From Escherichia phage Sa157lw, in the sequence record OK322699.1: DNA of 64,000 nucleotides; one strand, written 5' to 3'. The notes under the pieces are model-generated. The model was given only the letters and a program-made list of their open reading frames with translations, ran no database searches and was not told where the DNA came from. The position numbers and the translations under genes were made by a program. Within the stretch, counting starts at the first letter, position 1; each line of letters starts with the position of its first letter. Shown here piece after piece: positions 537-62,183 of the stretch.

Positions 537-564
537 TTTAACTCAGAAGCATTCAATAGATGAA

Positions 565-597
565 GGGGCTGCTATAATAGCAGCTCCTTTTGTTTAT
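565..597 (+). terminator. rho-independent terminator
   Basis: GGGGCTGCT-ATAAT-AGCAGCTCC stem-loop followed by TTTTGTTTAT. Confidence 0.55.
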
Positions 598-2877: not shown

Positions 2878-3431
2878 TCACAGCAGAGCATATTAAAAGT
2901 CTGCTCGAACTTCAAAAGGCCACCAACGTGGCCTATTTTGGGGAAGAGTGGAAGAATGTATGGAGTCAGAACGCCGTCGTCAACTCCATATATCGTGAGT
3001 GGGCAGAGTTTCTTGACGAAACGACCGCCGACTGGAAGGTCTATGGTAACGATATCGGCTTCGACCGCACGAAGGCGGTCTATGAACTGGTGGACGTGGT
3101 TCACTTCATGCTGTGTTTCATCCTCGTCGATCGCACCAAAGGAGAGATCGAGGAAGAATTAGAGGAAATGTCTAAGGATAGTTATGCCATGTCTATCGTT
3201 AACGGCATAGTTGCCCACGGCGGGGTGACCTACCGCTTTGGACAGTTCATGGGCGATCCTTGCGTTCGTTCCCTGATGTATTTCCTGAGCGCGTCTTGCT
3301 CTTACGTGGGGCTGGACGCCGAAACTTACATGCTGGCACACAAACGCAAAAATGATCGCAATCGGCTGCGTGCTGCTGGCGGTGCGAACTACGATAAGTC
3401 CGCAGAAACCCCTCTGACCCTGGAGTTCTAA
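2874..3431 (+). CDS. all-alpha dNTP pyrophosphatase (T4 gp56 dCTPase/dUTPase-like)
   Basis: YELVDVVHFML and acidic EEELEE segments resemble T4 gp56 ELVDIFHFVL region. Confidence 0.45.
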   Translation: MITAEHIKSLLELQKATNVAYFGEEWKNVWSQNAVVNSIYREWAEFLDETTADWKVYGNDIGFDRTKAVYELVDVVHFMLCFILVDRTKGEIEEELEEMSKDSYAMSIVNGIVAHGGVTYRFGQFMGDPCVRSLMYFLSASCSYVGLDAETYMLAHKRKNDRNRLRAAGGANYDKSAETPLTLEF

Positions 3432-7298: not shown

Positions 7299-7327
7299 CT
7301 TCAATAATGGTGGTCATAGGGTATAAT
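7299..7327 (+). promoter_or_regulatory. sigma70-like promoter candidate
   Basis: CTTCAATAA then 16 nt then TATAAT, about 35 nt upstream of ATG 7362. Confidence 0.3.
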
Positions 7328-7706: not shown

Positions 7707-8018
7707 ATGTCAGTTGAACAAATCGGGTTTTACCAACTTCCTTCTGATCCCAAGCTGCGTCAAAAGATGATGCAGACATTGGAAAATTGCCGCGCCGCCC
7801 AGATCCGTATCAAGTCTGAACAGACATTTGTTACCGAAGCTCTGGCCGAATTGGCAAAAGAAACAGGCATCAAAGCCGTTGATCTGCGCAAAGTCGTTAC
7901 TGACCGCGCTGGCGGAACATACACCAAGACCATCGAGACCAGCGCCAAATACCAAGATCTCTATGAGTCTCTGTATCCTAATGCAGCGCCTGATCGCGCA
8001 GCCGATCCTCAGCCATAA
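7707..8018 (+). CDS. hypothetical protein
   Basis: 103-aa ORF, RBS GAGGA upstream. Confidence 0.4.
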   Translation: MSVEQIGFYQLPSDPKLRQKMMQTLENCRAAQIRIKSEQTFVTEALAELAKETGIKAVDLRKVVTDRAGGTYTKTIETSAKYQDLYESLYPNAAPDRAADPQP

Positions 8019-8058: not shown

Positions 8059-8136
8059 GAAACCTTTACTTCAATAAAACATACGGCTATCATTTAACCT
8101 ACTTTGAAAAGTTTCACTATATCATGAGAGGCAAAT

Positions 8137-12375: not shown

Positions 12376-12400
12376 TTCAATAAATCTATGGCAGTATAAT
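12376..12400 (+). promoter_or_regulatory. sigma70-like promoter candidate
   Basis: TTCAAT then 13 nt then TATAAT after a G/C hairpin, upstream of ATG 12429. Confidence 0.3.
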
Positions 12401-18408: not shown

Positions 18409-18417
18409 CTATTTAGG
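18409..18417 (-). promoter_or_regulatory. late-promoter-like CCTAAATAG motif
   Basis: 36 nt upstream of ATG 18373; resembles T4 late TATAAATA. Confidence 0.35.
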
Positions 18418-20915: not shown

Positions 20916-20947
20916 CCCAATAAATTAAGGGGAAGTATACCTTCCCC
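20916..20947 (-). terminator. hairpin terminator candidate
   Basis: GGGGAAG-TATAC-CTTCCCC stem-loop with A/T-rich flank. Confidence 0.4.
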
Positions 20948-20968
20948 TTTCTTCAATAACCTAAAATA

Positions 20969-31946: not shown

Positions 31947-32009
31947 TGTTGGAGCCTCGAATTTACGTTCCGCTCATGGGGAACATAAAAATTATACCCT
32001 TAGACACAA

Positions 32010-32034
32010 CAATGAAAAAGAGGCCGAAGCCTCT
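32010..32034 (-). terminator. rho-independent terminator
   Basis: AGAGGC-CGAA-GCCTCT hairpin plus U-run on minus strand. Confidence 0.5.
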
Positions 32035-39429: not shown

Positions 39430-39847
39430 ATGCCAGTGCTTTTACAATCATCACGGCCAATCCGATTGGGTCGCACGTACCTTCGAATTCTTGTTCTAAA
39501 ATCTCACGTATTTCATCAGAAGATTGTACTTCGGAGCAGTTCTTGCTCTGTCGACGTTGTTCTTGCTCAACGAGGTCTTTGAACAGAAGGTCTTTGAAAG
39601 AATACTCATCGAAGTTTTCCAGATACTGCTGGATACTTGGTTGTTTCGCATCCATCGTTCTACGCAGATTGCTGATAGTTGAACTCGCCTGTTCGCGGTG
39701 TTTGTTCATAACGGAAAAGTTCACGGGTTTCCCCCAAGCGTTCGTCACTGTGTTGGAACACACTTGTCCGAAGAGATCTTGGAAGGCGTCATCCAGATGA
39801 ATCAGCGCGGCGGCCAGTTCATCATAAGTTGGTTTTTGAGCAGTCAT
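39401..39847 (-). CDS. hypothetical protein
   Basis: 148-aa ORF. Confidence 0.4.
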   Translation of the reverse strand: MTAQKPTYDELAAALIHLDDAFQDLFGQVCSNTVTNAWGKPVNFSVMNKHREQASSTISNLRRTMDAKQPSIQQYLENFDEYSFKDLLFKDLVEQEQRRQSKNCSEVQSSDEIREILEQEFEGTCDPIGLAVMIVKALAYAAKGETDV

Positions 39848-40215
39848 TTTCGTTTATTCCTATTTTTAGATTTCTTGGCTTGACGTTTATGCTGAGCGGC
39901 TCCATACAAGCGCGGAGGCTTTTGATAACGCTGTGAGGCAATTATATCCCTGTAGTCGGCTTCGGCTTCACAGCAAGAAACATCCGTTCTTCGTAATTGC
40001 GCGACCGCTTGTGACACCAGCATTTTACGTTCGCTTTCTACCAGGTCATCACAAATTATCATGCGCTCGCCTGGTTCACAACGACGTTTGGGAATGTCGT
40101 CAACACTGATGCATTCCACCTCAACGCCTTTCAATTTTTCTTGAAGGATGATGGCCATAGTACGAGCGCCCACCCCTCCTCCAATAATTGCAATCTTTCT
40201 TGGCTTGTCAGACAT
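39844..40215 (-). CDS. hypothetical protein with glycine-rich dinucleotide-binding-like motif
   Basis: IAIIGGGVGART; start at internal ATG because the longer N-terminus overlaps a hairpin. Confidence 0.35.
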   Translation of the reverse strand: MSDKPRKIAIIGGGVGARTMAIILQEKLKGVEVECISVDDIPKRRCEPGERMIICDDLVESERKMLVSQAVAQLRRTDVSCCEAEADYRDIIASQRYQKPPRLYGAAQHKRQAKKSKNRNKRK

Positions 40216-40221
40216 ATTACA

Positions 40222-40260
40222 TTCCATAAAAAGAGGATAGAGCAATAATACCCTATCCCC
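40222..40260 (-). terminator. hairpin terminator candidate
   Basis: GGATAG...CTATCC stem with U-run on minus strand. Confidence 0.4.
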
Positions 40261-40276
40261 CTTTATTGAAGAACGA

Positions 40277-40702
40277 TTAGTCTTTGGATTCTACTTTATC
40301 ACCGCGCAGATCCTGGACGGGTTTGCCATCCGGCGACATGATGTAGATGGTGTTAATTGTCTCAAACCAAGACAATTCATCAACTCCTTCAGTGTATGGA
40401 GTTACCGGAACTGAAGTTTTGATATGATCACCAACGTTATTTGGGGCACCATCAGACTTCAGCACTGGCTCCAGGAAGGCGAAACGGCCATTTGGATAAA
40501 TCACCCCGCCTTTGAACATGCGAATCTTCTTACGAGGATTATTCGCCTCACCAAGGCACACCACCAGATGATGGATCATCTCAGGACGGGTAAGCAACGT
40601 GTCGTCACGGATGATCCCCTGTTTGATAGCGGAGATCACCACTTCATCCAACAAAGCCTGTTGCTGTTCCAGAGTCAAAGATTCAGTAAGTTTCACGCTC
40701 AT
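40277..40702 (-). CDS. hypothetical protein
   Basis: 141-aa ORF. Confidence 0.4.
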   Translation of the reverse strand: MSVKLTESLTLEQQQALLDEVVISAIKQGIIRDDTLLTRPEMIHHLVVCLGEANNPRKKIRMFKGGVIYPNGRFAFLEPVLKSDGAPNNVGDHIKTSVPVTPYTEGVDELSWFETINTIYIMSPDGKPVQDLRGDKVESKD

Positions 40703-40705
40703 GGT

Positions 40706-41275
40706 CTAACCTTTGAAATTAATTGGGTTCTGAACCCCAGAGTCAAACGCGGCCTGGGTACGGGTATCGCTCACCACCTGACAGGTCTTGTCAAGATCGA
40801 TGCGAGGGTATCCAAAGATGCCAGCAATGACAGATCCAGGGAACTGGCCGAGTTTGGTTTCATAGATAGCACACGCGTCCAATTTCTTTGTCTGGCTGAT
40901 ACGGAATTCATCACGTCCTGAACTGATGACCACCTGAATTTCTTTGTACAGGCTTGAATCAAACTGGATGTTCTGTTCCTGGATCCATTGCATAACCGCC
41001 TTTGAACCATCAGCACCATAACGACCCTGGAAAGTATCTTTGATCACTTCTTTCAGACCGTCTTTGTACAGGCCAGGTATCTGAGCCGTCTCTTGTACTT
41101 TGTTTGTATAGTTGCTCAGATGGTTTTCAGAATCTTTATTGAACTTTTTGACTTGCTGTTCAATACGATTGAAATCATTGAAATAACTGACGAAACTACC
41201 AACACCGATTACAACAAAAGCCAGAATCGCCAAACCGATGATCCAACCAATTGAAATACCTTTACGCTGCGACAT
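40706..41275 (-). CDS. membrane-anchored hypothetical protein
   Basis: N-terminal TM helix ISIGWIIGLAILAFVVIGV. Confidence 0.45.
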   Translation of the reverse strand: MSQRKGISIGWIIGLAILAFVVIGVGSFVSYFNDFNRIEQQVKKFNKDSENHLSNYTNKVQETAQIPGLYKDGLKEVIKDTFQGRYGADGSKAVMQWIQEQNIQFDSSLYKEIQVVISSGRDEFRISQTKKLDACAIYETKLGQFPGSVIAGIFGYPRIDLDKTCQVVSDTRTQAAFDSGVQNPINFKG

Positions 41276-41290
41276 CTTTACTTCCTCTTG

Positions 41291-42400
41291 TTAAAACAAA
41301 CGTTTGTAAGTGCGACCATTGTACTGCATATGGCCTAATATGAAAATTGCGGTAAACGGAACACAACCTAATAAAACGACGATAATCACTTCCCATGTCT
41401 TGAGGTCACGCCATTTCAGATACTCCATTTCCTTCATTTCAACGCGGTTATAGCCTTTGCTGATATTGACTGCAACTTCTTGGAATACTGATATCCCCAT
41501 GGGTTTGCCAGTCAATGAAAGACCGTTTCGGGAATGGAGTTCCATGTTATTCATCCCATCAGCAAATGACGTGGATTTACCCCAATTGATTTTCATATCC
41601 TTCGATATGTCAGTAACCACAATGACATCGTTCTTTTTACCACCGGACCATGCATATAGCAGCCCCTGAAAATATTCCACAGGCTGGCCAGAAGTCACTA
41701 CCCACACGATATTGACCTGACGTGATGCCCCCAATGTTTTCAAAGTGTTGTTCAGATAATCATTCCAATAATCAACGGGAATATCCATCCCTGACATATT
41801 CAGAACACGAGTCACCCGATAATAATCATACACCCTTGGATATGACGGGATATGGTCTTTGAACTTCTCAGCGAATTGTTGGTCAGATTTGGAGAATAAA
41901 GAATCCTTGTTCCCCAGAACATAGTTCATATATGCATGTTCACGAGCTGCAGGTTCTCCGATTTTAACTTGCGCCCAACGCGGAGGCTCTGTAGTACCCT
42001 GACGATCAATACGGTCAATGCTCAGATCACCGACGGTTGTTAATACGTCCCAATCAACGTCATAAGAGTGCTCATAGCACGTGCTGCAATGACGCGTTTG
42101 TGTACAAGATCGGTTATTTCCTGAACCAGAGCAAGAAGTTGTGTAATAGCACATACATTCATAAGAATGACTACAGCTTACCTTGTTTCGTTGCTTATCG
42201 GTAACGTATCCATTCAAAATTTCAACATCTCCCGAACTACCCAGGGAAAATGCAGCGTATGCTCCCGCCTGGATAAGACAGGATAATACAACCACTATCG
42301 CAGTAGCAATTAGCGTTTCTTTTGGTTCATGGGTTTTGCGATGGTAAACCACGAACAATATGGCTAAAATAATAGGGACCACAAACAGAAGGTAAATCAT
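41291..42400 (-). CDS. membrane protein with Cys-rich segment
   Basis: TM helices at both ends; CSHSYECMCYYTTSCSG...CSTCYEH. Confidence 0.45.
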   Translation of the reverse strand: MIYLLFVVPIILAILFVVYHRKTHEPKETLIATAIVVVLSCLIQAGAYAAFSLGSSGDVEILNGYVTDKQRNKVSCSHSYECMCYYTTSCSGSGNNRSCTQTRHCSTCYEHSYDVDWDVLTTVGDLSIDRIDRQGTTEPPRWAQVKIGEPAAREHAYMNYVLGNKDSLFSKSDQQFAEKFKDHIPSYPRVYDYYRVTRVLNMSGMDIPVDYWNDYLNNTLKTLGASRQVNIVWVVTSGQPVEYFQGLLYAWSGGKKNDVIVVTDISKDMKINWGKSTSFADGMNNMELHSRNGLSLTGKPMGISVFQEVAVNISKGYNRVEMKEMEYLKWRDLKTWEVIIVVLLGCVPFTAIFILGHMQYNGRTYKRLF

Positions 42401-42783
42401 AACACACCATCCACGAGTTGTTCCTTCGTCATACCAAGAAGTTGATTTTTATGACCTGATTCAGCTCCATTTTTCAACAACAGATCCCAACGTTCTTCAT
42501 GATACTGTGGAGTCATTGCATCGTCAAAAGAAACATGGTGGCGATGCATAATTGTTGCAACGGTATGAAGAACGATTGCTGTCGCTCTTTTTAAAGCACG
42601 TGTATCAGTGATATGGTCTTCATATTCAATACCCATCAAATCGAGTTCTTTCCGAATATATGCAATAGACAAATCACCTTCAGAATGCAATTTAACAATA
42701 GTCGCTTTCTTAGGATGTAACACGCCGTCTGTTTCTTTCATGAACAGATCGTACAAATATTGTTTGTATTCGGGGCGCATCAT
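42397..42783 (-). CDS. hypothetical protein
   Basis: 128-aa ORF. Confidence 0.4.
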   Translation of the reverse strand: MMRPEYKQYLYDLFMKETDGVLHPKKATIVKLHSEGDLSIAYIRKELDLMGIEYEDHITDTRALKRATAIVLHTVATIMHRHHVSFDDAMTPQYHEERWDLLLKNGAESGHKNQLLGMTKEQLVDGVL

Positions 42784-43034
42784 CTCGTAATCCCTCCGGC
42801 ACAGATAATATTCAGTTCACCGCGACGGAAACCGCCTTGCCCCTCGCCATGTAGTAGACCAAACGCACTCTTGCCGGAATTTTTGTTGCCGTTCAGTATA
42901 TTCCAAAGAGCATCAGCATCGCCTAACTCAGTCATCTGGTATTTTGTTGGATTTTTATGATCTTCTTCCAGAATCACCGATACCATAGATTCAATATCGA
43001 GGGAGTCCATATCTTCAATTCGTTGCATTGCCAT
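42780..43034 (-). CDS. hypothetical protein
   Basis: 84-aa ORF with AGGAAA RBS. Confidence 0.4.
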   Translation of the reverse strand: MAMQRIEDMDSLDIESMVSVILEEDHKNPTKYQMTELGDADALWNILNGNKNSGKSAFGLLHGEGQGGFRRGELNIICAGGITR

Positions 43035-43046
43035 GATGTATTTCCT

Positions 43047-43087
43047 TGTAAAAGAAAGGGGAACGGGCTAATAATAACCCATTCCCC
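43047..43087 (-). terminator. rho-independent terminator
   Basis: GGGGAACGGG...CCCATTCCCC hairpin followed by U-run on minus strand. Confidence 0.5.
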
Positions 43088-43115
43088 TTTATTGAAGAAC
43101 GCAATCGCAGTCAGA

Positions 43116-43283
43116 TTACTTTTTCTTCAGCTCTTCCAGCTTGGCTTCAATTTGGTCCAGAATCTCTTTACCTTTCTGGACGATGGCTTCACCGTCTTGC
43201 GCGTGTTTACGAAAAACCAGAGCGCCAGCAATGAAACCAACAACCACGCCTGGGAGCGCATACACCAACAGATCTTGTAACAT
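43116..43283 (-). CDS. small membrane protein (55 aa, not in ORF track)
   Basis: MLQDLLVYALPGVVVGFIAGALVF..., GAGGA RBS 8 nt upstream. Confidence 0.4.
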   Translation of the reverse strand: MLQDLLVYALPGVVVGFIAGALVFRKHAQDGEAIVQKGKEILDQIEAKLEELKKK

Positions 43284-47448: not shown

Positions 47449-47508
47449 AACAATACCTGTTGTCAAAGGGATAACAGGGGGAATTATATCCCCCTTTGTT
47501 TTATTGAA

Positions 47509-50505
47509 TCAACCTTTCTTGCCCATCATGGACAACAGATTAACTCGACGTTTGTGAGACCAACCAACCACGTCTAGAATAGATTGAATCGGCTCTATGA
47601 AGGTCTTTTCAAACGTGGTGTGATAATCTACCCACTTATCCAGCCCCAACTCCGGAGGGAGGAAGTCAGGGAAGGCTATGCGGTCGTTCCCCACAGGGTT
47701 CCCAGGTTTCAGGTTAATGATTTTAACCTTATCGCCAGATTCTATCGGCGGGAGACCGAGGTCTTCATGCTTGTCTATCAGCTTGTTGTACATAATACAA
47801 GCCTTGGCAGCAAAGTGTGTGCCACTGATATAATTTCCGTTGCCGTCTAACCACTTCTCAATATCACTAACGCCAGAGGCTTGAGCAATATCATCCACGG
47901 TTAATTCCATATATTCCTTCTTATAACCCGCGATCAATTCCTGAACTTCAGCCTCCGTCCCCAGAAGAACTTTCTCATAGCATTTAACCAGACGCTCACG
48001 ACACCATTCCGGCGTTGTAGATTTACGCGCTTCCAGACCTTTGAATTTGATCTTTGGCTTCTCATACTTGATGCCTTCGCTATCGTATACCGCCATGCAA
48101 TACATCTTCTTGGCTCGCCATACAGCAGACGATGCGATGACCTCACGTTCCCAGACCATGCGCTGCTCAAACCCGTTCATGGTATTACATAACAACTGCG
48201 CCCATTCGCTGGTTTTTGGCTGGTAATTCTCTTTGATCCATTGGTCAATGTTATCAACGAGTTTGTGATGGTCCTTTTCTTCAGGCCACAATTGCTTGAC
48301 CAGGCGTTCAATGCAAATGTAGTTGGAGTCAGTATCACCCGCGATAACAAAATCCTGACCAGTAGTGCCGCAAAGTTTGTTCAGATAATCATCGGTGTGG
48401 CGTTTGTTCCATTTGTTGATCAGCTGGCCGGAAGTGGTGATTGCTTCAGCGATGTTGATGTTGAAGTATTCTTTAAACCAGACGTTGGAGATTGCGCCAT
48501 AACCTGCGTTCATCAAGATCTTCAGACCTTGTTGTAACGTGTCTTGAGCAACCCCCAGATCTTCCCATTTATGCATGACTTCAGTCAGGTGATCAAGATC
48601 GATATGCTTGTGTTCTTCATACCATTCAGGATCGTAGAAACGAGACTTCATGGCAGACTCAAGGTGGAAATCACCTTTAGACATTTCCTTACACCAACCA
48701 GCCCATTGCTCATACTTCAGGCCAGTTGCTTTCTCTCCTTTACGGTCAGCGTATATGCCTCGCATAATTTCGGAAAGGAAGGACATCTTCTCATTACTGA
48801 AGAACTGAACGTTCGGGGTAAACGAAACGTTATATCGGCGTAGTGTTTCAAAATGGAATTCGCCCAGCGCGACCAATTCATCAACAACTTGTATGCGTTC
48901 ATCAATAGCACGCTGCAACTTGTCGTGAAGATTTTTGAGATGACGACGTTTATTCATCGGCGTTGTCATATCATTCATCGCTTTGGTCAATTCCTCACAC
49001 ATGGCCTCAATAATATCACGGCGTGTGTGCTTATCAGAAACGATAGTCTCTGGACCAAGGTTGTATTGCTGTATGATGTGGGGATACAGGGAGTTTAAGT
49101 CCTCAGAGAAGACCCAGAAATATATCCCTGGTGCAACCTCCATGACATATGCGCCTTCAAAATCTGTTGGCCCATCATAGACGCGCTGGATTTTCGGGAC
49201 AATCCCCTTCTCATAAAGACGATAATAGCACATCGCCAGCCACGGTGCTACAGTGCCGAGACCGTCTTCATAGTTGGATTTAGTGCGATAAGCCAATACA
49301 AACATCAGCTGTATCAAACGCAGTTTTTGTTCTAAGCGCCACACCAGCTTGACGTCTTTGATACCATATCGCGTATGCTTGCAATAATCATTGAAATAAA
49401 GGTCATACAATGATTTGCTTTCACTATAATCCAACTTCTTCTCACCGAGTTCACAATAAGCGATCCAGTCCAGTGAGTATTTTTCGCGGGTGGTGTAAGT
49501 GTGTTTCTTGTACACTTGCATGTAGTCCATCATTGGACAACCCACAAACTGATAAGACGTGACGTCGCCTTTACGGTCTTTGATGAAACGTTTCTTCAGT
49601 TTACCCCAAGGACTGAGACGCTGGGCTTCGGATTCACCAAGAACCTGCGTAATTCGTTCAACCAAATAGGGGCTATCGAACGTTTCAATGTTCCACCCCG
49701 TCCAACCGTCAAATTGACGCTGCGACCAGTAGTTAAGGAATGAACGCAGCAGATCCTGCTCGGTGACGAACTCCATATACTCAACCTGAAGCCCACCGAT
49801 TTCAGGATCGTTCTCATCATACCTGAACTTCGCGCGATCCTTGGAACACGGCATGCCCCAGACATAGAATTTATTGGTATTCATATCTTGGAGCTGTATC
49901 AGCGTAATAGGGAACGCCGCATTCATGTTCTGTGTGATTTTACCGTTACTGTCAATTATAGGGAATTGGTCAGTCACGTTGTTGGAAATAAAGGAACCAG
50001 GGAAATGCTCCCGAACGAAGTCATGGTTGGCCAGTACTTGCTTATGGAAACGACGAACCCGCGCCTCGCTGCCTTTAAACGTGTGAGATTCGATCGTTGC
50101 GTGTGGGAATGGACCTTTAGTCATTTCTCCGTCACGCCAACCAGCCGAGAACACTTCGATATCCACGTTGGCGATGTGGATATTTGAATAATCAGGTGTG
50201 ATCATCCCAGGAAAACTATGGGCGATGAATTGATATGCATAATCCGTTTGTCCATACACCGCAGCGCCTTCGACCTCCTTGTACTCCTCAAGATAGTTGT
50301 CAGCGTCGCGCATTGATGCAAACTTTTTAGACACCAACGGTTCGTTGAGGAGGCCAATCTTTTCAACTTTGGAATAATCAGCTGTGGGTAAATACAAGGT
50401 GGGTTCGAATTTCTTACGCAACATGCGGCGATTGCCGTTGTCGTCTGCGATACGAATCAGAAGGTCGTTACCCTGTCGGGCAACGTTCGTATAGAAAACA
50501 GTCAT
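47509..50505 (-). CDS. family B DNA polymerase (T4 gp43-like)
   Basis: Pol motif IAGDTDSNYI, exonuclease domain; start at MTVFYTN with GGAG RBS. Confidence 0.9.
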   Translation of the reverse strand: MTVFYTNVARQGNDLLIRIADDNGNRRMLRKKFEPTLYLPTADYSKVEKIGLLNEPLVSKKFASMRDADNYLEEYKEVEGAAVYGQTDYAYQFIAHSFPGMITPDYSNIHIANVDIEVFSAGWRDGEMTKGPFPHATIESHTFKGSEARVRRFHKQVLANHDFVREHFPGSFISNNVTDQFPIIDSNGKITQNMNAAFPITLIQLQDMNTNKFYVWGMPCSKDRAKFRYDENDPEIGGLQVEYMEFVTEQDLLRSFLNYWSQRQFDGWTGWNIETFDSPYLVERITQVLGESEAQRLSPWGKLKKRFIKDRKGDVTSYQFVGCPMMDYMQVYKKHTYTTREKYSLDWIAYCELGEKKLDYSESKSLYDLYFNDYCKHTRYGIKDVKLVWRLEQKLRLIQLMFVLAYRTKSNYEDGLGTVAPWLAMCYYRLYEKGIVPKIQRVYDGPTDFEGAYVMEVAPGIYFWVFSEDLNSLYPHIIQQYNLGPETIVSDKHTRRDIIEAMCEELTKAMNDMTTPMNKRRHLKNLHDKLQRAIDERIQVVDELVALGEFHFETLRRYNVSFTPNVQFFSNEKMSFLSEIMRGIYADRKGEKATGLKYEQWAGWCKEMSKGDFHLESAMKSRFYDPEWYEEHKHIDLDHLTEVMHKWEDLGVAQDTLQQGLKILMNAGYGAISNVWFKEYFNINIAEAITTSGQLINKWNKRHTDDYLNKLCGTTGQDFVIAGDTDSNYICIERLVKQLWPEEKDHHKLVDNIDQWIKENYQPKTSEWAQLLCNTMNGFEQRMVWEREVIASSAVWRAKKMYCMAVYDSEGIKYEKPKIKFKGLEARKSTTPEWCRERLVKCYEKVLLGTEAEVQELIAGYKKEYMELTVDDIAQASGVSDIEKWLDGNGNYISGTHFAAKACIMYNKLIDKHEDLGLPPIESGDKVKIINLKPGNPVGNDRIAFPDFLPPELGLDKWVDYHTTFEKTFIEPIQSILDVVGWSHKRRVNLLSMMGKKG

Positions 50506-58720: not shown

Positions 58721-61289
58721 AAAATTGGCGGGGTCTGAGGCTTTTCACCTCACCTGCTGGATTGGCCTCCAGCTGTTCTCTCTGGGGACTCGCTGTCCGG
58801 ACAGCTATCCCTTAAACTATCGCCCCTTAATTCATATTGCTGTGGGTAATACCAAAGCGGAGGTTTGGAATCTCTCGCCCTATAGCGACCTTTAAACCGT
58901 TTGATCAGTCCGATCCAAAGGACTACCCACAGCAATATGAATTTGTTGTGTCCAATCAAGGACTGTCAACCTTTTATCCCGTTTGTGCATGATCAGTTCA
59001 TGCAGGCCTCTTTGTGCGCCTCACAGCAACGCGCTTCTGTAGGTCATTGACTTGCACCGTAGTCTCACCACAGGCGTTTATTTTTCCAGGGCTTTCCACT
59101 TACAAGTCTTAACCAGATCGGGATACGGGCTTGTAAGATCAGATTGGACACAACTTTGATGGCTCTAGGACTAAAGATCCCGCGTCACCCATAGACTTGG
59201 TTTATAAAATCTAGAGCCATCAAAGTTGCAACCAATGTCGCAACTCGCACTTCAGCGTCTTCGTCTCGCTTCAGCACTTGTCCTCTACGCTCGGACCAAA
59301 CGAGGCTGGCCGACAGAAACATGACACCACTCATCACTAGAGCGAGGATGTGGTTGATAGCCACGATGTTACATCTCTGTCGCAGAGTGATCACACTTGT
59401 CAGGATGATCACTGTTTTGCGAACTTGAAAATACTGCGCCTGTCTCGGGTTTCCCCTTAGTTCGGCCTCTCATTGTTCGTCTAGTCAGGGAGCTACCCTT
59501 GATGACCAGCTTATTTTGAGATCTTCGCCAGCACCCACTAGTGTCTAGAATATGTAGGTGTCGAGGTCTGCAAGGCATTGCCCTATTTCATACAACGCTC
59601 TCTCAAGTACGCAAATCGAAGTTCTCTGGGCTTAACAGGTTCGACCCAACATGTTGTATATCGCCTAACTTGCTCATGGGACGGACACATCTGTGTACAG
59701 ACCTTGAGGGTTAAAAGATATACCCAAAGAACTTCGATTTGCGTTGTGGGGGCAAACCCCCACACGGCTACTTCTTTGACAGGGATTGCTAGCCCTGGGG
59801 ATTCCACTGTTTAAGGCTTTATCCCATAACGCCTGAGGCGCGTTTTAACTTATTGAGCTTGCATAACTGCAAACTGATGCGCTGTGAGACACATCTTTGA
59901 GGGCACTCAGTGTACAACAGGCTCCGATATTTCATAGGGCATTACTGCCTCGGATTTAAGTTGCCTTTCTCCTGAAACTCCATGCAGTCTCGCGTCTGAC
60001 GCGGAATGCCCTCAAAGATGTGGAGCCGTTTTAGGGAGTCGAACCCAAATGCTTGGCCAGCGCTGACCTTACATCCCATCTGACTTAGGCAACCCACCTC
60101 TGCTTACTCAGGAGCTTATCCCCTTTGGACAGTCAGATATAACGGCTTTGGGATTGGAGGAAGGACTCGAACCTTCTCATGTACGCTCCTGATTTCTCAG
60201 AAGTAGCCTGCTCCCATCGACCTATTAAGTACACGCTCCGCTCATTGTTCGGCGGGAGCTTATTAATCACACCCTCCCGCCTATTGTTAGTGCGCCGAAT
60301 TTTGTTATGAGGAATCGGAAGACCTCACTGGTGTATGGCTATTAAGCTACTGCCAGGAACGTGTTATCATTAGCGATTATTTTTGTGGTCAGTTTCTAAA
60401 AACCCGCAAAGTCACGCACAACGAAAACGAAAACCTGTTTGAGTCCTAAACCTACCTGTCTTGGTCTCACATCGCTATGAGTGGCCAGGACTCAAACAGC
60501 TTGCCGTTCAGTGAGTTAACTATACTTTGTAACCCGTTATTGATAAAACCTTTTATTTTTGTTGACGAGGGTGTGGAATCGAACCACACTTCTGAGCGCT
60601 GCCCCGTGTCACCAATGCACCACCTCACCATCGATTTGCCGGAACTTACGCATCCGGCCTCGCCTGTTGGTGATCCTTCGAATCCGGGAAGATTAGTAGG
60701 AACTATGAATCAAGTTAATTCGACCAACAGGAATCCTCGTGTTGCCCTTTGACGCAACATTATGAACCCTCTATGAAGACTCATAATGTTGTCGGCGTGA
60801 TGGAGATTAGCGCCCCCGACCTCCCCTTATATGTTGGTGTCGACTTGCCAACGGGGTGCTCTCATTCTTCTGAGCTAATCACGCTACAACAGGGAGTTTC
60901 GTTCTCCGACGGTCAAGTGCGTCCACTGACACCAGCGAGGTGGATGTGACGCCTCTATTCACACAAGCCCCAGAGACTAGGGGTTCACTGTTTTCGGTTT
61001 CAAGCCTACTCACACTGTGCTGTTTCCCTCATGTTTGATACTTTACTGCAAGCCAGCCAATTTGAAAAATCCTCTCCCCTTTGAATTACACTGCCCACAG
61101 CAGTGCGGACGAACCTTCATTCAAAACCGGATGCGCCGAAATGGGCGACTGTGTACCGGACTGATCAGGTCGACCCAGGAGAGAGCAGGTAATCCCGATC
61201 AGGAGGATGAGGAGTAACATCATGTAAAACATAGTGTTCCCTCCCTTCCATGCAACTAACTTTACCGCATTTATTTATTGAATAAAGCG

Positions 61290-61859
61290 TTATTTTATCA
61301 ATTCTAACTTCACAACGCGGCGCAGAAGATAAACATATTCACCAGACGCTTCATGCGACATATAATGTGTAGAAGGGGTGGAATGGTTGTTCTGGGTTTC
61401 TTTTAACCCAACGCGTTCAGCCCAACCATTAATGGAGTTCCCGTAAAACCCGATAATCGCGCCGAAATAAATGCGCTGGCTTTCTGGTTCTAAAATATAG
61501 TTGACAGTGAAGCAGATGTCAGAACGAATAGATTCTAATTTTATACCAACCCGACCTTCAGAGAATTCGTTGCGAACATACAAATGACGAAAACGATCGC
61601 GCCGCGCTTGTGATGACTCTTCCAATTCTTGGCGAAGTGAGGATGTTGCATCGATATTAAATGAAAATGTCGGGTTTTGTAGATCGGTACGGGCTAACTC
61701 TAATGCTGATTCAACAACACGGCGGTAATTAATATTTTTGCCAGTCAGACGTTTCACTTCTTCTGTAATTGTTCCGAAAGGAATTTTTGTAGCACGTTCC
61801 CCTTCGTATTTTGCTAACAAAGGAATGATGTGTTTCATTATTGCTGTATTAATGTGCAT
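61290..61859 (-). CDS. hypothetical protein
   Basis: 189-aa ORF. Confidence 0.4.
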   Translation of the reverse strand: MHINTAIMKHIIPLLAKYEGERATKIPFGTITEEVKRLTGKNINYRRVVESALELARTDLQNPTFSFNIDATSSLRQELEESSQARRDRFRHLYVRNEFSEGRVGIKLESIRSDICFTVNYILEPESQRIYFGAIIGFYGNSINGWAERVGLKETQNNHSTPSTHYMSHEASGEYVYLLRRVVKLELIK

Positions 61860-62174
61860 TTCCTGAGCCTCGTCAAATTAATTAAATGTCCCCACTATTA
61901 TATTGGGAATATGTTTATTGAATATAACCCCAAGAAAGGCCAATAAAATAATGACAGCGATTATTAATAGGTAAAAACTACTTTTCTACAACATCAAGAA
62001 ACTGTATCTTAACGCGGTGCCCTTCGAGTTGTGAGTGTTAACGAACAACGAGAAGCAGCCTCCATGGCTGCGGAATGGGACTGCCTGTCAAGGCGGTGTT
62101 ACGAGCGAGGGCGTCAGCCCCCTCGCGAGTATATTCGAATAAATTAACGCGCGAGAGCGTTTTGATTCCCTTTG

Positions 62175-62183
62175 GCTAAATAT
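62175..62183 (+). promoter_or_regulatory. late-promoter-like GCTAAATAT motif
   Basis: About 40 nt upstream of ATG 62223. Confidence 0.3.

Follow-up and report, generated by a model that had tools for sequence, protein, structure and literature searches.

Candidate terminator-promoter cassettes built on a conserved 8-bp box between genes of Vi01-like phages

The 64,000-nucleotide (nt) stretch of Escherichia phage Sa157lw analyzed here (OK322699.1; referred to below as the window) contains two short cassettes, A and B, each of which fills the entire intergenic gap between two co-directional genes on the minus strand, a spacer of ~60 bases. Both carry the same 18-mer, CCCCTTTATTGAAGAACG; a first-pass annotation of the window had described it as an exact duplication, at 40258-40275 and 43084-43101, with a terminator-like hairpin beside each copy and a minus-strand gene start behind it, and had proposed a terminator-promoter module reused between early genes. 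The duplication and both hairpins were confirmed, the start codons (40215 and 43034) lie past the hairpin and its U-run, and no further copy of the 18-mer was found in the window even at 3 mismatches (0.07 expected). The 5-kb stretch around the two 18-mers is 99.6% identical to the sequence of Salmonella phage Vi01 (Ackermannviridae, Kuttervirus) and has matches in 274 phage records; the window is itself a Kuttervirus. The complete annotated Vi01 genome was used as the reference for genome-wide motif counts.

On the gene strand, both 18-mers read CGTTC-TTCAATAA-AGGGG, and the parts of each cassette follow one another in the same order: the stop codon of the upstream gene, the TTCAATAA box, 12 nt, a TATTAT hexamer in the loop of a hairpin, a U-run, a ribosome-binding site, and the ATG of the next gene (Table 1). 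From stop to ATG, cassette A is TAA-tcgttc-TTCAATAA-agggggataggg-TATTAT-tgctctatcctc-tttttat-ggaatgtaat-ATG and cassette B is TAA-(n19)-TTCAATAA-aggggaatgggt-TATTAT-tagcccgttcccc-tttctttt-acaaggaaatacatc-ATG. The hairpin arms are G-rich (5') and C-rich (3') in both. Over the 5' arm and loop the two cassettes are identical at 29 of 32 positions, and the differences in the 5' arms are matched by differences in the 3' arms; in hairpin A, the minimum-energy helix continues through AAA/UUU. What lies upstream of the box in both cases is the coding end of the preceding gene, which is not AT-rich. The -10-like hexamer is thus inside the terminator loop, so that the two elements are nested and not side by side, which refines the module first proposed. 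A search of the region against Rfam returned only sub-threshold chance matches.

In OR122688.1, the two hairpins are marked as terminators, antisense to the genes (locus L001, 2727-2762 and 5552-5589), and a promoter at cassette B is annotated in 0 of 60 sampled phage records that contain this cassette. The cassette also occurs at ~96% identity in the records of Enterococcus phage Efm 3-10 and Pseudomonas phage Pa-sanjiao, which may be mislabelled Kuttervirus sequences. Downstream of cassette B, an exact 21-mer, AAGGAAATACATCATGGCAAT, is common to 43027-43047 (minus strand) and 51494-51514 (plus strand), with 0 chance matches expected; it spans the ribosome-binding site, start codon, and first two codons of two different genes, one behind cassette B and the other behind an early-type promoter.

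Table 1. Features of cassettes A and B and of further sites in the window
Feature	Position	Strand	Details
18-mer, copy A	40258..40275	-	TTCAATAA box 40263-40270, starting 6 nt past stop codon
Gene upstream of cassette A	40277-40702	-	stop codon 40277-40279
-10-like TATTAT, cassette A	40245..40250	-	in apical hairpin loop, 12 nt downstream of box
Predicted start, cassette A	~40238	-	A, 7 nt past hexamer
Hairpin A	40233..40261	-	5' arm GGGGGATAGGG 40251-40261, 3' arm CTCTATCCTC 40233-40242; -23.9 kcal/mol, z score -6.3
U-run A, terminator tail	40226..40232	-	TTTTTAT (UUUUUAU), then weak ribosome-binding site
Gene behind cassette A	39844-40215	-	ATG 40213-40215
18-mer, copy B	43084..43101	-	TTCAATAA box 43089-43096
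Gene upstream of cassette B	43116-43283	-	stop codon 43116-43118
-10-like TATTAT, cassette B	43071..43076	-	in hairpin loop, 12 nt past box
Predicted start, cassette B	~43064	-	G
Hairpin B	43058..43087	-	5' arm GGGGAATGGGT, 3' arm AGCCCGTTCCCC; -26.8 kcal/mol, z score -5.8
U-run B	43050..43057	-	TTTCTTTT (RNA UUUCUUUU), then ribosome-binding site AAGGAA
Gene behind cassette B	42780-43034	-	ATG 43032-43034
Cassette directly after DNA polymerase gene (47509-50505)	47483..47508	-	TTCAATAA-N12-TATAAT, loop of GGGGGA/TCCCCC
Same cassette type	552..578	+	TTCAATAG-N13-TATAAT in loop, -26 kcal/mol hairpin, then U-run
Same promoter type	7300..7327	+	TTCAATAA-N14-TATAAT, hexamer in loop of 10-bp stem, without U-run
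Tandem arrangement	12376..12400	+	terminator directly upstream, T-run continuing into TTCAATAA-N11-TATAAT
Tandem arrangement, degenerate box	31991..32016	-	terminator, then TTCATTGT-N12-TATAAT
Site upstream of gene 55681-56382	56424..56449	-	TTCAATGA-N12-TAAAAT, partly within hairpin
Site in tRNA cluster, tRNA-Met/tRNA-Asn gap	58523..58548	-	TTCAATAA-N12-TATGAT, without hairpin
Site upstream of tRNA cluster	60519..60544	-	ATCAATAA-N12-TATAGT
Divergent intergenic site	61897..61922	-	TTCAATAA-N12-TATAAT, weak flanking stem only
T4-early-like promoter	51417..51457	+	-35 TTTACT 51430-51435, -10 TATACT 51452-51457, 16-nt spacer
CTAAATA	62176-62182	+	
CTAAATA	54171-54177	-	
CTAAATA	18410-18416	-	

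The first-pass annotation had also listed other copies of a core motif, and that list holds up in part. The exact 9-mer CTTCAATAA occurs six times in the window versus 0.85 times expected (7299+, 8069+, 20951+, 40263-, 43089-, and 51437+). Positions 7299 and 8069, on the plus strand, were correct as given, but the copy placed at 20941 actually lies at 20951 and is antisense to the local genes. The entry at 12376 is TTTCAATAA, a one-mismatch copy of the 9-mer, in which the 8-mer TTCAATAA itself is intact at 12376-12383. A TATAAT hexamer lies at 47485, and the box that belongs to it, ATTCAATAA (also one mismatch from the 9-mer), is found at 47501-47509 on the minus strand. The copy at 51437, which had been overlooked, sits in a different promoter context (see below). 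The conserved core is the 8-mer TTCAATAA rather than the 9-mer, and TATAAT or TATTAT, previously put at 13 to 17 nt from the core, follows the end of the box after 11 to 14 nt, with a mode of 12.

Counts in the complete Vi01 genome showed that the box is enriched between genes. TTCAATAA is present 44 times (13.6 expected), and 25 of these copies are fully intergenic (1.5 expected), a 17-fold enrichment given that intergenic DNA makes up 7.8% of the genome. Most of the intergenic boxes (21 of 25) are co-oriented with the downstream gene, and 12 of the 25 are followed at N11-13 by TAnnnT, versus a background of 5.7% (P = 3e-9). At least 17 sites of this promoter type were found in Vi01 and at least 11 in the window. 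When 17 Vi01 sites were aligned, all eight positions of the box were near-invariant and TATAAT or TATTAT stood at -10; the alignment was also G-rich from -15 to -13, position -1 was C in 11 of the 17 sites, and 14 of them had a purine at +1. A stem of at least 5 bp surrounds the hexamer at 9 of the 17 sites; among the remaining intergenic -10-like hexamers, the share is 6.5% (P = 3e-7). The box usually starts 54 to 63 nt ahead of the ATG. The genes downstream function in replication, nucleotide metabolism, or as tRNAs, or, in most cases, are small and uncharacterized, and no fully intergenic box was found within the 33-kb late structural block of Vi01. When viral contigs were scanned for TTCAATAA-N12-TATAAT, the matches listed contained only scattered chance matches.

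In our hairpin scan, terminators without a box mostly had tetraloop-type motifs (for example, cttcgg, ttcgg, and gaaa) within their loops and not AT-rich, -10-like loops; for that reason, the long AT-rich loops of the cassettes look constrained by the hexamer. Conversely, box and hexamer also occur together without a strong hairpin, as at 58523-58548 in the tRNA cluster and at the divergent site 61897-61922, where the box begins 63 nt ahead of the ATG at 61859 and there is no co-directional upstream gene. In a second arrangement, the terminator is located just upstream and its T-run runs into the box (window positions 12376 and 32016). The hairpin-free sites, the divergent site, which would need a promoter, and the statistical link between loop hexamer and stem argue together that box plus hexamer form a DNA-level promoter and that the hairpin is a terminator added where upstream transcription must stop.

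We consider it probable that the cassettes are intrinsic terminators with an early or middle promoter nested inside them, a reading consistent with every sequence-level test that we ran and with the module originally proposed. In RNA made from the upstream gene, the G-rich/C-rich hairpin followed by the U-run would act as an intrinsic terminator. At the DNA level, these bases would double as a promoter, with the 8-bp TTCAATAA box spanning roughly -32 to -25, a hexamer that makes an excellent sigma70 -10 element (TATAAT or TATTAT) 12 (±1) bp past it in the hairpin loop, and a pyrimidine-purine start 7 nt past the hexamer, within the 3' arm. A transcript begun at this inner start would lack the 5' arm, and the terminator would therefore not fold in it; the restarted RNA would enter the next gene through a leader of ~22 to 30 nt. 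The -10 element would most likely be read by the host sigma70 holoenzyme. The box appears to stand in for the missing -35 element, and its most likely reader is a putative phage-encoded factor acting in the manner of those at T4 middle promoters, with an unusual direct contact by RNA polymerase as a less likely candidate. We infer promoter and terminator activity, start sites, timing of expression, and a box reader from sequence.

Both cassettes were recovered in 19 related loci, in which a marker protein is 71 to 99% identical to that of the window, and they persist in Limestonevirus and other relatives at 71 to 73% identity of that protein. The box was invariant across the 19 loci, and the N12 spacing and the hairpin were kept except in cassette B of one locus, L008. 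Point variants of loop B (TATTAT, TAATAT, and TATATT) all fit TAnnnT; variants of hairpin B were compared by eye only, because MAFFT misaligned the one that is a base shorter. For hairpin A, 96.7% of the cells in the alignment were paired. The 80 nt of cassette B were found at ≥90% identity in 216 phage records, and in Dickeya phages the cassette is 96 to 97.5% identical, compared to 74 to 84% for the flanking DNA. Serratia phage phiMAM1 (Miltonvirus; polymerase 69% identical) has the same architecture, including a cassette directly after the polymerase gene. Vibrio phage K395 (polymerase 50% identical) lacks box enrichment and has TTGTCA-N17-TATAAT promoters after its terminators; because of this absence, seen in one 43-kb stretch of one Vibrio phage, the box looks lineage specific and not like a universal host signal. 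K395 also encodes a 600-amino-acid sigma factor of the sigma70 family beside its DNA polymerase region (locus L146, 17650-19452), and no homologue of it was found in Vi01.

Gene content varies at the borders of the cassettes. In locus L008 (~3330-3400), the stem-loop of cassette B is inverted, with GGGGAACGGGTTAATAATAACCCATTCCCC in place of GGGGAATGGGTTATTATTAGCCCGTTCCCC, a G-U pair converted to a C-A mismatch, and the loop hexamer changed to AATAAT; this inversion indicates recombination across the inverted repeat. Many relatives of the L007 type carry an extra uncharacterized gene of 63 codons (MTPQYKILV...; L007 3190-3393 versus window 43043-43040), which sits precisely where the U-run of cassette B would otherwise lead into the ribosome-binding site of the following gene. 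That following gene (42780-43034 in the window) is itself mosaic, with its first ~13 codons and its C terminus kept and a body that is unrelated in relatives. These features hint at a plasticity like that of the PeSL cassettes of phages RB49 and phi1 (see below), although no exchange from cassette to cassette was seen in the compared relatives, and no second cassette flanks the 63-codon gene.

The closest known counterparts of the cassettes are these PeSLs (promoter-early stem-loops), in which an early promoter is paired with a stem-loop, often polyG followed by polyC, that is situated between -35 and -10 or overlapping -10 (PMC2839356). PeSLs span the distance from stop codon to ribosome-binding site, precede uncharacterized genes, and flank the polymerase gene, and experiments have demonstrated that they have promoter and terminator activity and recombine (PMC2839356). 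Cassettes A (from 40277-40279 to 40215) and B (from 43116-43118 to 43034) have the same span, the same polyG/polyC stem-loop overlapping -10, and many relatives ahead of small uncharacterized genes, and gene content differs at cassette borders in both systems. PeSLs, however, have a sigma70-consensus -35 element and an AT-rich upstream region, in place of which we find the TTCAATAA box 12 bp from -10; their copies share far more sequence than do the present cassettes; and they are known to recombine and form mini-circles. The cassettes described here thus differ from PeSLs in the box at -30 that replaces the consensus -35 element, in the phage family (Ackermannviridae), and in the small amount of sequence common to the copies.

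In promoter geometry, the cassettes instead resemble T4 middle promoters, in which the MotA box is 12±1 bp from -10 (PMC2988021), near -30 and next to an excellent -10 element, and no -35 element is present. As judged from the aligned sites, the present promoters likewise lack a sigma70 -35 element and carry their box at about -32 to -25, the position of the MotA box, at a spacing of 11 to 14 nt (mode, 12). T4 middle promoters are also located upstream of genes for replication, nucleotide metabolism, and tRNAs and downstream of early terminators, as here. The differences are that TTCAATAA does not correspond to the MotA box, (a/t)(a/t)(a/t)TGCTTtA; that T4 encodes MotA and AsiA, of which we found no sign in the ten proteins scanned or in the annotation; and that a -10 element in a terminator loop, present here, is not known from T4 middle promoters. 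Compared with ordinary intrinsic terminators, the cassettes have the GC-rich hairpin and U-run just past the stop codon but carry unusually long (7- to 10-nt), AT-rich loops that appear constrained by the -10 hexamer, as well as a conserved 8-mer ahead of the stem. Canonical sigma70 promoters have a TTGACA-like hexamer 16 to 18 bp from a TATAAT-like one, which A and B do not. Genome papers on ViI-like phages had stated that informatics could not reveal the early and middle promoters and that these phages have no regulators of the MotA/AsiA type (PMC3184105, PMC3121705).

Several considerations weigh against the nested-promoter interpretation. Cassettes A and B have no sigma70 -35 element and were not called by a scan for sigma70 consensus promoters. 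Ten candidate Vi01 proteins were scanned against Pfam and PHROGs, five of them also against NCBIfam, and solved structures were searched for two; neither these searches nor the Vi01 annotation revealed MotA, AsiA, or an additional sigma factor. The near-perfect consensus of the 17 aligned sites is partly circular, because those sites were picked by pattern. Covariation in hairpin A is weak, with both sides changed in 2 of 12 pairs, because the sequences vary little. The DNA of these phages reportedly contains a hypermodified thymidine, which could alter recognition by proteins. Our literature search found no mapping of transcription starts or 3' ends for Ackermannviridae; it likewise found no description of the motif, but it did not extend to the Viunalikevirus genus proposal (Arch Virol 2012, PMC4174289), so that a prior in silico account is possible.

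The only cassette that passed the consensus scan is the one after the polymerase gene (TTGATT-18-TATAAT, 47512-47483), and at most sites the hexamer aligned at -35 matches only 2 or 3 positions of TTGACA. Together with a box that reaches into the would-be spacer and the MotA-like geometry, this argues for sigma70 at -10 and a phage factor at the box. Two Vi01 proteins were considered for the latter role. Vi01_042c, a small winged-helix protein, was ruled out as a general factor because it was found in just 51 phage records and the window lacks it. Vi01_052c is a family-wide small putative regulator for which no link to the box was found. The authors of the CBA120 paper also report no MotA or AsiA (PMC3184105). 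Promoters of the N4 hairpin type were dropped from consideration; a phage RNA polymerase is absent from the Vi01 annotation. N4-type hairpin promoters have 3-nt loops and require a virion RNA polymerase.

It is somewhat unlikely, though it would be only a variant of the preferred explanation, that host sigma70 acts alone and that the box is a weak and displaced substitute for -35 (nnTTCA, 16-bp spacer), aided by a perfect -10 and by G at -14. In favor of this view, PeSLs use ordinary sigma70 promoters, G at -14 is frequent, a hexamer containing TTG is present at 16 to 18 bp in some sites (such as the cassette after the polymerase gene), and no activator was found among the proteins scanned. 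However, the eight near-invariant positions reach 4 bp into the spacer that such a promoter would have, a region not read by sigma70; the -35-aligned hexamer is poor at most sites, A and B fail the consensus scan, and the geometry equals that of MotA-box promoters; and K395, which has no box, instead uses the canonical TTGTCA-N17-TATAAT. It is improbable that the cassettes are terminators only, possibly bidirectional ones, in which the box is an A-rich tract (the T-run in antisense) and the -10 falls in the loop by chance. The hairpins are strong and have U-runs, read on the plus strand they are followed by TTTATTG, and that is the strand on which OR122688.1 marks them as terminators. Yet no plus-strand gene converges on the sites, the box is a specific 8-mer and not a generic A-tract, its co-orientation and fixed distance to the ATG and the 12±1 spacing to TAnnnT recur, the latter even without a strong hairpin, loop point variants retain TAnnnT, and terminators that lack a box mostly have loops of the tetraloop type.

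Still less credible, and in our view very improbable, is an element that acts on RNA, whether as a processing or stability site or as the operator of an RNA-binding protein such as a RegA-like repressor. The box is transcribed within the 3' end of the upstream mRNA, the hairpins are stable, and Vi01 encodes a RegA homologue; but no Rfam family reached threshold, the arm sequences differ between cassettes, and the box is coupled to a DNA-type -10 hexamer and a pyrimidine-purine start and also occurs inside the spacer of sigma70-type promoters and in a divergent region without an upstream co-directional transcript. More plausible than any of these, but still only a tentative possibility, is that the repeats serve mainly as recombination substrates, mobile cassettes that shuffle small genes, which would be compatible with promoter function. 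The insertion of the 63-codon gene exactly past the U-run of cassette B next to a mosaic gene body, the inverted stem-loop in L008, and the cassette that immediately follows the DNA polymerase gene, a gene also flanked by PeSLs in RB49 and phi1, all fit this idea. Against it, A and B share only ~18 to 32 nt, which is short for homologous exchange, and neither a second cassette flanking the inserted gene nor an exchange between two cassettes was observed.

Returning to the nested-promoter reading, the remaining sites in the window place the box in more than one context. The site at 7300..7327 heads a two-gene unit whose last gene (7707-8018) is the Vi01_052c-like putative regulator. The plus-strand promoter at 51417..51457 is of a second type, which we take to resemble the T4 early promoter consensus (an UP element, a -35 of the GTTTAC type, and a -10): AT-rich DNA lies upstream, and TTTACT at -35 is separated by 16 nt from TATACT at -10. 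A reversed box, TTATTGAA, lies in its upstream region (51417-51424), and TTCAATAA itself lies in its spacer (51438-51445), so that, by sequence, the exact 9-mer is also part of a T4-early-like promoter. Four promoters of this type are present in Vi01 (58249, 63959, 99209, and 144189). We know of no description for T4 of a box in the spacer of an early promoter together with a second box, in either orientation, upstream of -35. The double box suggests a protein-binding site that serves two promoter contexts.

Reversed boxes (TTATTGAA or CTATTGAA) were also seen at three promoter-like sites (window 20952-20959, with the box on the plus strand and the genes on the minus strand; Vi01 12542, 18078, and 28144), with TATAAT or TATACT in the direction of the genes 11 to 12 nt on, in a hairpin loop. 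The box may therefore work in either orientation or be recognized only in part. An exact box at 8070-8077 (plus strand), past the terminator downstream of the Vi01_052c-like gene, has only a weak TATCAT at N10 and is mutated to TGCAATAA at its Vi01 counterpart; whether it is a promoter site is uncertain.

These two contexts raise a more speculative scheme, which we regard as doubtful: in the Kuttervirus, Limestonevirus, and Miltonvirus phages sampled, pre-late expression might depend on a system that resembles sigma appropriation but is unrelated to MotA/AsiA, with the same phage protein also effecting an early-to-middle switch. Bound to TTCAATAA at -30, such a protein would activate promoters devoid of a -35 element, a good number of which lie in terminator loops, and through the boxes in the spacer and upstream region it could shut off the T4-early-like promoters. 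The Vi01_052c homologue (7707-8018), which itself lies behind a promoter of the first type, is a candidate for this factor on circumstantial grounds.

Two further observations concern other parts of the transcription program. The motif CTAAATA, often followed by CCCC, has 23 copies in Vi01, 16 of them intergenic and all of these co-oriented with the next annotated downstream gene; 14 copies are 28 to 49 nt ahead of start codons, mostly those of structural genes. By analogy with the T4 late promoter sequence TATAAATA, CTAAATA is likely a late promoter read by a gp55-type sigma factor; the CBA120 paper had called the late motif unidentified (PMC3184105). Vi01_183 (locus L005, 41852-42301), whose gene is absent from the phage of the window, matches an ADP-ribosyltransferase family (ART-PolyVal, E value of 9e-11) and is possibly a functional analogue of T4 Alt/ModA, which ViI-like phages are said in the CBA120 paper to lack (PMC3184105).

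Vi01-like phages are widely used in biocontrol, diagnostics, and engineering, and the motif TTCAATAA-N12-TATAAT, with the candidate sites mapped here, would make their transcription program directly testable and their annotation improvable. The motif could also be used as bait in a search for the missing regulator. A -10 element placed in a terminator loop would be a very compact insulator-plus-restart part of potential use in synthetic biology. For the biology of these phages, the cassettes would extend PeSL-type elements from the T4-type phages to a second family.

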